This document shows, piece by piece, positions 15,001-18,000 of a DNA stretch of 64,000 bases. Location of the stretch: the NCBI RefSeq assembly GCF_001677475.2, contig NZ_CP012498.1; one strand, given 5' to 3'. Made by a program: the position numbers. Source of the DNA: Escherichia coli (GTDB taxonomy: Bacteria; Pseudomonadota; Gammaproteobacteria; Enterobacterales; Enterobacteriaceae). Each line of letters opens with the position of its first letter. Positions within the stretch are counted from its first letter, which is position 1.

Positions 15001-18000
15001 CCCGATCACGGATATTTGCTGGAGCTGCATTTTCCCTCTCTCGTTGGGCAGCACAAAAGTGAGCCAGGGGAAGGTGCCGGATACCGCAAACCCGTCAATG
15101 CCGATCCAGTTCTGCCCGGCGCCTCCCCCTGTTTTTAAACGTATCGGGCTGGCTATTGGTTACTGGGAGCCGATGGCCCTGACGGATGTCACCCGCTCAC
15201 CGGGATGCATGGTTAATCTGGGGTTCAGTCTGCCGGAATTCGGGAAAACGGCACAGGGTACGGCTAAAAAAGAAGATAAACAGGTGAACGGGGCGTTCTA
15301 TCACGTTCACTGGTACAAATACCCGCTGACGTACTGGCTGAATATCATCACGTCGCTGGGGTGCCTGGAAGGCGGAGACCTGGATATTGCCTATCTGTCA
15401 GAAATTGACCCTACCTGGACGGACAGCAGCCTGACCACCATCCTCAACCCGGAGGCGGTCATCTTTGCAAATCCGATAGCACAGGGAGCCTGTGCGGCGG
15501 ATGCCATTGCCAGTGCCTTTAACAAGCCGCTGGATATTCTGTTCTGGTGTGCCGGTTCGCAGGGCAGTATGTATCCGTTTAATGGCTGGGTGAGCAATGA
15601 ATCCAGCCCGTTGCAGTCATCCCTGCTGGTCAGTGAGCGGATGGCATTTAAGCTCCACCGTCAGGGCATGATAATGAACACTATCGGCGTGGATGTGGCC
15701 GTCTGTTATGAATATCCGTCTCCCATACTTCCCAAAGCGCGCTGGCGTTATCAGATGGTAAATATGTACCCGGACAGCGGACAGTGCCATCCGTTCGGAC
15801 GCAGTGTGATGCGCTGGGAGACGGGAAAAAATCCGCCCAACACAAAGAAAAACTTCGGCTACCTGATGTGGCGTAAACGTAACTGTGTGTTCCTGTAAGT
15901 CATGTTAATCAATAAGAGGATCGATTATATGAAGGTGTGGGTAATAAGAAATAAACACGCAGATGACTTCAGAAAAATATGTCTTCTGTTTATCCGGTTA
16001 ACGAGCAATGTATTAAAGCTGTTTCCTTTTGCTATGGTGATGTGCTCTGTGGTGTGGTTTTATTTTTGCCCTGAATATATTCTCTCAGACATTGTTAATG
16101 ACTGGCATGATGCAGATACACTGGAAAAAATAGGGCTTGTCAGACTGTATCTGAAGACGTCTTTTATTCTTACAGTGGTGGGCGTTGTTATTTCATATCT
16201 TTCTTCAGATAAGTTTATACCCGTTAAGCGCAGGAAATGAGTCTGATGGTTATCATAAATATAACAGTGTGTGCATGTGTACAATATAAGTAAAGGTGCG
16301 TTATGGGATTTTTCTCATTTTTACGAAAGATAAGTAATAAAGAAAAAGGGGTTTTTATCAGTGAGGAGCATTGGTTCTCACTGCTGGAAAAGGTGAGTGC
16401 TTTTGATGAGGTCAGACAATGGGCTGAAAGTAATGGTGGGGCATATTATCCTCTGCTGGAGTGTCGTCGGCTTACAGACAGTGAAGATGTCAGGAAATCA
16501 GAGGATATACTGAACCGACTGGAGTTTATCGACAGAAGGTTTCGGGAATTCATCAGCATTATGTCTGAACATATTAATAATGATAAAACTAAATCCATGT
16601 GGGAGAGGAATTTGTCTGAATATCCACCGAAAAAAATATACCAGGTCCGGAGAGAGGGAGAACATCTGTCATTAAAAAATTACGGTGATGATATTACTCT
16701 GAACAGAGATACCGCCGTGGCTACGGTGCAGATTACTGTCAGCAGAAAATGCATTACTCAGGAAGAAATGGATGAATTATATGCATTGTCTGAGAGACTG
16801 AAAGAAAAGTGCGCCGGTAATTAAATTATATCACTGTGCCGGGAGATGATATGAGCCGGAAAATATTTGTACTTTTTGCCCTGACCACAGGACTGTTTAT
16901 TTCTGCCCATGCTTCGGAAAATGTGAATACACCCGAAAACCGCCAGTTCCTGAAGCAGCAGGAAACACTGAGTCAGCAGTTGCGTGAGAAGCCGGACACA
17001 CAACTGCAGGCATGGGCAGAACAGCAGGTCAGGGCGAATCCCCTTCAGCATGCCGATAACCAGTTTCTCGATGAACTGGTCCGTAAACAGCAGGCTGCTC
17101 AGAAAGACAAACCACAGCAGGGGGCCGTGTATTTTGTGTCGTTCTCCATTCCCGAAGAGGGACTGAAACGGATGCTGGGAGAAACCCGGCACTACGGCAT
17201 TCCGGCCACACTGCGGGGCATGGTGAACAATGACCTGAAGACTACCGCTGAAGCCGTGTTGTCTCTGGTAAAAGATGGCGCGACCGATGGTGTTCAGATC
17301 GACCCGACGTTGTTTTCACAGTACGGCATCCGCAGCGTGCCGGCCCTGGTGGTGTTCTGCAGCCAGGGGCACGACATCATCCGGGGAAATCTGCGCGTCA
17401 GGCAGGCGCTGGAAAAAGTGGCCGCCACGGGAGACTGCCGGCAGGTGGCTCAGGGACTGCTGGACGGCACCGGGGATAAGCCGCAATGAGTTTACCTGCC
17501 GGGTATTACCGGATTGACCCGGACATCCGTGCACTGGTGGCCGCGATGAACGTTCACGGATTCCGTACATATGCCTCCTGTCAGGGACATGGTTTCCCGG
17601 TCACAAAGCTGCTGCCTTATATTGCCTTTGCCTGTCCGGTAAAAATGGCTGCCCTTCTTGAGCAGCGACTGCGGCAGGATGCTGAATCAGCAATACCACG
17701 TCTGACATGGGGATGGTCGGTGAAGGGGGCTTTTAACAGTGACCTTCAGCTCTGTTTCCGGCTTCAGCCGGAAGGTCCTCATTGCTGGTATCACCGGTAC
17801 TGTCGTCGTTCACTGCGTGCAGACTTCAGGACGCTGATATTGTTACTGAAGTCGTTATCTGAGTAGTAATCCCGGTACGCCAGGAAGCTCCATACACCAA
17901 AATCAACACCGTTCTGAAGTTGAGATGACATCACTTCATTCTCCATTTGGTTCAGATTATGAAAGAAAAGATAAATACCTTTTTCAGGTCTCTGAATTTT

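Follow-up and report, generated by a model that had tools for sequence, protein, structure and literature searches.

What occupies the gap between traU and trbC in the F-like transfer (tra) operon of an Escherichia coli contig, and how did it come to lie there? The stretch that raises the question is 64,000 nucleotides (nt) of contig NZ_CP012498.1 (RefSeq assembly GCF_001677475.2; hereafter the window, to which positions refer unless a locus is named), in which the operon runs in the order traC, trbI, traW, traU, trbC, and then traN. An earlier reading of the DNA (the original prediction) held that two AT-rich genes had been inserted here as cargo, with exclusion, anti-defense, or action in the recipient as candidate functions, at a point where trbC directly follows traU in plasmid F. 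We conclude with high confidence that the segment instead represents an allele of a polymorphic accessory-gene slot of long standing, whose gene families (A, B, C, and X) are exchanged and stacked by recombination between coresident F-like plasmids without a mobile element.

The traU-trbC junction across F-like plasmids

The physical description of the segment held up. The gap of ~950 bp is 952 bp long, and its two plus-strand open reading frames (ORFs), A (103 amino acids [aa], with two transmembrane [TM] segments) and B (173 aa, soluble), were confirmed; together they cover 88% of the gap. The traU stop codon (TAA, 15896-15898) lies 30 nt upstream of A, 62 nt separate A from B, and B ends 26 nt before the ATG of trbC at 16851, which has a GGGAGA Shine-Dalgarno sequence upstream. 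A and B likewise have ribosome-binding sites of their own (AAGAGGA, 8 nt upstream of the start of A, and AAGGTG for B); an upstream ATG at 15902 would make A 112 aa long and is absent in relatives such as locus L009. The segment is markedly richer in AT than its flanks, as predicted, with a guanine-plus-cytosine (GC) content of 0.386 (0.35 to 0.42 in 300-bp windows) versus 0.52 to 0.61 in traW/traU and trbC. When the insert was shuffled 5,000 times, the longest ORF averaged 66 aa, a length of 173 aa was reached in 2 shuffles, and both ORFs were obtained in none, which rules out chance as the origin of A and B. A scan of the traU-trbC segment found no plus-strand promoter-like or terminator-like site, and this includes the spacer between A and B. 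Since A and B share the orientation of the operon and have no promoter or terminator of their own, they should be co-expressed with the tra machinery, as had been expected.

We searched PLSDB with a composite query in which the 3' end of traU was joined to the 5' end of trbC, and 4,429 plasmids matched, with junction sizes of ~8, 343, 950, and 996 bp. When the junction of F was the query (evenly sampled over 4,368 records), about one-third of the records had the direct junction, ~30% had an insert of ~335 bp, and the rest were broken at the junction. The original prediction was therefore right that trbC directly follows traU in F, where 8 bp separate them, but F represents a minority state: only about one-third of the ~4,400 plasmids compared are direct, and about two-thirds of F-like plasmids hold small genes at this point.

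The slot is empty in F, in L004, and in the Raoultella locus L007. A 101-aa relative of A, called A', stands alone in R100 and ~1,160 plasmids, and a further relative, A'', stands alone in pSLT-type plasmids. The allele of the window, A followed by B, was found in 525 plasmids (278 from Escherichia and 221 from Klebsiella), and the same pair is preceded by C in L001. C occurs alone in IncFIIK plasmids of Klebsiella, and X is followed by B', a relative of B, in 298 plasmids. The remaining states are stacked: A followed by an in-frame A*-B fusion (L016-L019) and A followed by a truncated B, X, and B' (L022). By tblastn, 2,024 PLSDB plasmids carry an A-family gene and 800 carry a B-family gene (~46% and ~18%, respectively, of those with F-type traU/trbC). 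Among 5,426 complete E. coli genomes, 314 carry A+B DNA, and 332 of its 334 places are on plasmids.

These counts qualify the idea of an insertion. The segment is accessory, being absent from F and about one-third of relatives, but it is not a particular foreign insertion into an F-like junction: an A-family gene lies at the same position in R100, in pSLT-type plasmids, and in ~2,000 of the ~4,400 F-type plasmids, and no element borders are present. The original prediction had also named the opposite outcome, a conserved backbone pair present in F and most F-like plasmids. The pair itself is missing from F and occurs in ~12% of plasmids, but a related gene is there in a near-majority. In the contexts inspected, the profile searches, and the complete E. 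coli genomes, neither family was found outside the slot; the B contexts inspected all adjoin F-type conjugation genes, lying between traU and trbC in L016-L019 and directly upstream of trbC on the short L020 contig.

The four families are distinct in size and kind: A proteins are ~100 aa long with two TM segments, B proteins are soluble and 150 to 173 aa long, C proteins have 58 to 59 aa, and X is a 153-aa P-loop protein. The GC content is 0.34 to 0.39 in all slot alleles. ORF A of the window has each of the features that mark the A family (~100 aa, two TM segments, PF...W...LYL, and a gene placed between traU and trbC) and shares 45% identity with A' of R100 (E = 3e-30) and 40% with the pSLT-type ORF, and B and B' are 32% identical (E = 1e-17). 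The C proteins from E. coli plasmids can be aligned with those from plasmids of Klebsiella. X (2226-2687 in L003 and 3267-3728 in L022) carries the Walker A sequence GEEDTGKST, gives a weak AAA/P-loop signal (AAA_14, E = 9e-4), is labeled "ATP-binding protein" by the Prokaryotic Genome Annotation Pipeline (PGAP), and is followed by a B' allele in every case. In the small sample available, an A-family or X gene lies directly upstream of every intact B or B'.

The R100 ORF (WP_000224416.1, 101 aa) and the pSLT-type ORF (WP_010999945.1) match A in position, orientation, upstream leader, length, and two-TM character, but each stands alone without a B-family gene and is annotated as a hypothetical protein. 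The unnamed R100 ORF is the closest known object to the genes described here and has been hypothetical in databases for decades. PGAP often leaves the A-family gene uncalled; the A-family profile gathered 166 clusters, from E. coli or Salmonella in every case, some of which are labeled "conjugative transfer protein."

The borders of the segment bear on how the alleles are exchanged. Homology between alleles ends exactly at the traU stop codon, and the leader upstream of A is common to that upstream of A' in R100. At the borders, we found no recombinase, no att-like site, and no inverted or direct repeats beyond short ones at chance level. Insertion of a transposon, an insertion sequence, or an integron cassette was rejected because ends and a recombinase are missing and the allele borders fall at the traU stop codon.

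Synonymous divergence (dS) tells of movement. Mean dS is 0.54 for traU and 0.19 for trbC; the values for A and B are 0.25 and 0.09, respectively, and that of B, far below that of traU, shows that the module moves between backbones. The A+B copy of the window is itself mosaic: L008 has the A nearest to its own, differing very little (nonsynonymous divergence [dN], 0.004), and the nearest B is that of the Klebsiella/IncFII-type locus L010 (dN, 0.022), whose A is far from that of the window (dN, 0.188). More broadly, A and B alleles assort independently of each other and of the flanking traU and trbC. Moreover, the 3' end of traU is duplicated inside the junction in two independent stacked alleles (40 bp in L016-L019, at 3902-4000 of L016, and 309 bp in L022, at 2933-3241); in L016-L019, homology to the A-B spacer of the window breaks after ~34 nt and gives way to the traU 3' remnant. 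Each duplication is the direct scar of a recombination that involved two different F-like plasmids. Given the mosaic of dS values, the traU scars, and the absence of element borders, the locus is best described as an old, recombination-driven cassette site rather than a one-off insertion from outside. The arms for the exchange are most likely the conserved 3' end of traU, on the left, and the conserved 5' end of trbC.

Like integron arrays and defense or anti-defense islands, the slot is a fixed site, flanked by conserved genes, at which alternative, stackable, AT-rich small genes move between backbones. Unlike them, it has no integrase and no attC-like or repeat borders; exchange apparently proceeds by ordinary recombination in the traU and trbC flanks, and its repertoire comprises only four families, found only there.

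Predicted properties of A and B and the selection on them

The two hydrophobic segments of A span residues 28 to 46 (nt 16010-16066) and 73 to 91 (nt 16145-16201). With basic tails (+6/-2 and +5/-1) on either side and an acidic intervening loop (+2/-6), A is predicted by the positive-inside rule to form an inner-membrane hairpin with both termini in the cytoplasm. This topology and the basic C-terminal tail also fit class II holin-like proteins, but the topology is generic, and no PHROGs or Pfam match was obtained. B has no hydrophobic segments and is presumably cytoplasmic, a location to which the A*-B fusions also point. In these 259-aa proteins (P0011 and P0026; 4001-4780 in L016-L019; 96 blocks of the contig index), an R100-like A hairpin is joined in frame to B downstream of a separate, intact A gene. 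Since B starts directly after TM2 in the fusion, it would be placed on the cytoplasmic side. The two proteins probably have separable functions and are not an obligate pair, given that A' occurs alone and B' pairs with X.

By the method of Nei and Gojobori, the ratio of nonsynonymous to synonymous substitution rates (dN/dS) is 0.47 for A and 0.56 for B. In B, the corresponding ratio of proportions (pN/pS) is unevenly distributed along the protein: it is 1.07 in codons 1 to 25 and 1.30 in a hypervariable patch (codons 88 to 105) versus 0.20 and 0.18 in the two cores (codons 26 to 87 and 106 to 173). Counted as minimum codon states over 8 distinct sequences, the patch has 22 nonsynonymous changes and 1 synonymous change, whereas the corresponding numbers for the cores are 15 and 18 (Fisher p = 1e-4). 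These statistics come from 6 to 8 recombining sequences and simple counting rather than a codon model and are correspondingly rough. They do show that B combines constraint at the protein level with a patch that is under either diversifying or relaxed selection. Within the patch, D94, K95, K97, and W100 are unchanged while adjacent positions vary, from which we infer that it is an exposed surface on a constrained scaffold. Motifs are kept across deep alleles of both families (PF, W59, and LYL in A; ECR, IDxxxxxFSxIM, and TVxIT in B), and the reading frames are uninterrupted in most diverged copies; both proteins appear to be under protein-level selection.

Not all copies of B are intact. A recurrent 123-aa form (P0047, on 142 contigs) is in the -1 frame from a run of six or seven adenines onward, a second truncated form (P0063) is on 105 contigs, and B is disrupted in L013, L021, and L022. 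The homopolymer frameshifts could reflect real slippage and inactivation or, in some records, sequencing error.

The profile searches proposed for both proteins returned no homologue of known function. In scans of Pfam, NCBIfam, PADLOC, and PHROGs, A, B, A', B', and C had no significant match; in PADLOC, A, B, A', C, and the fusion matched nothing, and X and B' gave only subthreshold P-loop or chance matches. An exhaustive search of 1.84 billion representative proteins with the B profile recovered 18 sequences, all of them B, B', or fragments, and a sequence-profile search of the PDB with B found nothing below E = 0.08. The A and B profiles were also compared by hhalign with 26 proteins of the F tra region and 8 of the R100 tra region (among them TrbA, TrbD, TrbE, TrbF, TrbG, TrbJ, ArtA, TraS, TraQ, and TraL), a 126-aa ORF of the window, X, and C, and no probability exceeded 8%. 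AlphaFold2 models of B were of low confidence, with a mean predicted local distance difference test score of 47.7 from 7 sequences and 54.5 from 30; a helical segment (residues 33 to 110) scored ~60 to 72 and the remainder below 50. Foldseek searches of the PDB and AFDB50 with these models returned only uncharacterized E. coli entries of the same family, and no inference about the fold was drawn.

The searchable part of the literature contained no description or functional study of either family. Work on F-like tra operons follows the gene list of F (PMC5102898); ORFs of R100 that are absent from F are mentioned in passing (PMC2762410), and the tra region of pED208 has uncharacterized orfX genes (PMC10939261).

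Possible roles for the slot genes

If the slot is a site of allele exchange, what might its genes do? In the account that we favor, A and B would be translated from the PY tra transcript, and hence only in transfer-competent, piliated cells. A would be inserted in the inner membrane with both termini inside and a short acidic periplasmic loop, and B would be cytoplasmic, probably at the membrane face beside A, and able to work when tethered to the membrane. The pair would contribute nothing to core pilus assembly or to that of the type IV secretion system (T4SS), and neither protein would be needed for DNA transfer itself. Plasmid F is transfer-proficient. Since it has no slot genes, and since B is disrupted in L013, L021, and L022, A and B are likely dispensable for transfer. 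B would recognize or block a variable partner, which could be a component of a pilus-dependent phage or the machinery with which a rival plasmid carries out transfer in the cytoplasm.

Confinement to the slot, fast evolution, the hypervariable patch, allele shuffling, and frequent loss agree better with a conjugation-specific function in conflict or specificity than with a structural one; such a function is plausible but still more doubtful than likely. The account as a whole (a polymorphic slot allele encoding a tra-driven, dispensable A hairpin and B specificity protein with a role in conflict) we hold tentatively, as nearly evenly poised but leaning toward doubt. A bolder version seems unlikely. 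In it, A, B, and their allelic relatives A', B', and X would make up an unrecognized conflict system that is coupled to conjugation and expressed only in piliated donors. The B patch would be the specificity determinant by which a variable invader, such as a pilus-dependent phage or the transfer machinery of another plasmid, is sensed or blocked where the inner membrane faces the cytoplasm, and the slot would be an arms-race locus shuffled through recombination of coresident F-like plasmids.

Known systems offer a functional analogy. Entry exclusion by TraS and TraG and abortive infection by PifA of F depend on membrane-associated, allelically diverse proteins whose variable parts set specificity in conflicts with plasmids or phages, and A and B may be analogous to them. 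In contrast to these systems, however, A and B are separable, they have no homology to TraS of F or R100, traS follows traG, and pif lies outside the tra region.

Several points weigh against a conflict function. The topology of A and the cytoplasmic location of B are predictions, and no usable structural model of B was obtained. No homology links either protein to any defense, exclusion, fertility inhibition, or Tra/Trb family in the searches described. The selection statistics use only 6 to 8 recombining sequences and plain counting, and a high dN/dS combined with frequent truncation also fits weak or relaxed constraint. Lastly, A and B are separable and may be independent genes, in which case the fusion may be a tolerated deletion accident.

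Of three more specific candidates, two were rejected, and position argues against the third, an anti-defense role in the leading region. A TraS-like exclusion gene would be in the wrong place, since the traS position of the window is occupied by another ORF (27267-27770), and there is no profile similarity to TraS of F or R100. An anti-defense gene of the leading region would lie beside oriT, whereas A and B are in the middle of the operon, ~10 kb into it. An obligate toxin-antitoxin or abortive-infection pair is at odds with A' alone in ~1,160 plasmids, with the pairing of B' with X, and with the independent assortment of alleles.

The main rival to a conflict role is that A and B are auxiliary, nonessential components of the F-type T4SS or pilus, comparable to TrbA, TrbD, TrbE, TrbF, and TrbJ, and would adjust how the pilus is assembled or retracted, or how efficiently cells mate, to suit particular hosts or backbones. 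The location agrees with this reading: both genes sit amid the block for pilus assembly and mating-pair formation, sharing its orientation and lacking signals of their own, and both families are confined to the slot in the tra operon. A is a small inner-membrane protein, as are several Trb proteins, and the label "conjugative transfer protein" is already attached to some of its relatives. The small Trb and Art proteins of F (TrbA, TrbD, TrbE, TrbF, TrbG, TrbJ, TrbH, and ArtA) and the products of the orfX1-4 genes in the tra region of pED208 are likewise small, often membrane bound, and encoded by genes scattered between essential tra genes; transfer does not depend on them, and their presence varies from one F-like plasmid to another (PMC5102898; PMC10939261). 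Yet neither by sequence nor by profile are A and B related to these proteins (all hhalign probabilities for Tra and Trb proteins of F and R100 were below 10%), they evolve far faster than their tra neighbors, with dN/dS values 5 to 9 times those of traU and trbC, and they occur as swappable alleles. Assortment independent of traU and trbC would not be expected of a coevolving partner, a hypervariable patch would be unusual in a structural helper, and about one-third of relatives, including F, lack slot genes. We consider this alternative rather unlikely, although it has the most to recommend it after the favored account.

A second alternative is that A and B are functionless or nearly so and are slowly decaying hitchhikers linked to essential tra genes. 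The high dN/dS of both genes, the recurrence of truncated, frameshifted, or disrupted copies of B (P0047, P0063, L013, L021, and L022), the dispensability of the slot in F, and the frequency with which PGAP misses A all fit such passengers. In decaying genes, however, one would not expect a pN/pS of ~0.2 in the cores of B with the excess of replacements limited to two segments, frames that stay open across copies diverged to 32 to 45% identity, or motifs kept across deep alleles, and the module spreads over backbones rather than merely decaying. This makes mere passage improbable.

More improbable still is the cargo reading with which the locus was first approached, namely, that A and B were recently acquired from a foreign source and act, for example, in anti-defense or in the recipient. 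A GC content below that of the flanks, absence from F, and movement between backbones (the low dS of B relative to traU) agree with it. Against it, the slot must be old, since R100, pSLT, and plasmids numbering in the thousands have homologues there with 32 to 45% identity, the families were found nowhere else, and insertion-element borders are missing. PADLOC and PHROGs gave no match, a result that does not extend to dedicated anti-defense libraries, which were not searched. During conjugation the leading region enters the recipient first, whereas genes in the middle of the tra operon are expressed only after establishment, and a membrane-anchored fusion is hard to square with a translocated effector. 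Finally, it is barely credible that the AT-rich DNA itself matters, as an H-NS-binding or transcription-modulating spacer with incidental ORFs: all slot alleles share a low GC content, comparable GC dips occur at 17.7 to 18.1 kb and 19.7 to 20.4 kb, and H-NS silences tra promoters of F-like plasmids (PMC7303359), but the ORFs are too long for chance in such DNA, it is on the proteins that selection acts, replacements being few in the B cores, F works without the segment, and no structured element or RNA family was found (Rfam scan of 15.5 to 18.2 kb).

Such ORFs are of a familiar kind, the nonessential accessory genes in tra operons like that of F, and their presence will not greatly surprise specialists. 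Four properties seem to be new to the literature: the organization as allelic cassettes, the scars left by recombination, the fusions of A to B, and the hypervariable patch. In E. coli, Klebsiella, and Salmonella, resistance and virulence genes are carried mainly by F-like plasmids. The tra operon of these plasmids is usually described from F, yet an A-family gene is found here in roughly one-half of those of F type and a B-family gene in about one-fifth, including the epidemic plasmids behind the 221 Klebsiella records. If the genes function in conflict between plasmids or with phages, their alleles would influence the success of particular plasmids in particular populations; if they are tolerated passengers, the slot can still serve to mark recombination among coresident F-like plasmids.

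Features of the window and other accessory genes

The coordinates of the slot, its flanks, and the other ORFs mentioned are collected in Table 1. NCBIfam also identifies TraV, TrbD, TraF, TrbF, TraX, and FinO in the window.

Table 1. Features of the window, with positions counted from its first nucleotide
Feature	Position	Strand	Remarks
ORF A	15929-16240	+	103 aa; two TM segments; orphan family
A-B spacer	16241-16302	+	Contains the Shine-Dalgarno sequence of B
ORF B	16303-16824	+	173 aa; soluble, presumably cytoplasmic; orphan family
Hypervariable patch of B	16564-16617	+	Codons 88-105; pN/pS 1.30
A7 homopolymer in B	16630-16636	+	Site of the -1 frameshift in the recurrent 123-aa truncated forms
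traU	14906-15898	+	Conserved upstream flank; translation matches traU annotated in relatives; dN/dS 0.06
trbC	16851-17489	+	Conserved downstream flank; dN/dS 0.10
traC	11270-13897
traN	17947-19863
126-aa ORF	17486-17866	+	trbC-traN junction; second variable slot beside the A+B junction
167-aa ORF	27267-27770	+	traS position; no NCBIfam match
ORF of ~200 aa	28605-29216	+	Between traT and traD; no NCBIfam match
ORF of ~200 aa	29597-30199	+	Between traT and traD; no NCBIfam match
239-aa ORF	32408-33127	+	Between traD and traI; no NCBIfam match
Type VI secretion cluster	~49,650-64,000		tssA, tssC, tssF, tssG, vgrG, and others

The GC dips at 17.7 to 18.1 kb and 19.7 to 20.4 kb mark other variable junctions of the tra operon. 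The 126-aa ORF between trbC and traN had no significant match in Pfam, NCBIfam, PADLOC, or PHROGs and lies at the same position in relatives, with 91% identity in L001 and 53% in the Raoultella plasmid of L007. All A+B-type loci sampled with an intact trbC-traN interval have it, which does not imply a function shared with A and B, whereas F, R100, L002 (the A'-only locus sampled), and L003 (X+B') lack it. An HNH endonuclease gene comes after it in relatives but is missing from the window.

Between traD and traI, the F record (NC_002483, L014) carries on the opposite strand a pair annotated by RefSeq as a vapBC-type toxin-antitoxin system (25967-26592 of L014), a further case of accessory genes embedded in the tra region. 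The type VI secretion region of the window shares 99.5% identity with large E. coli plasmids such as CP057155.1 and ~95% with plasmids of Escherichia sp.

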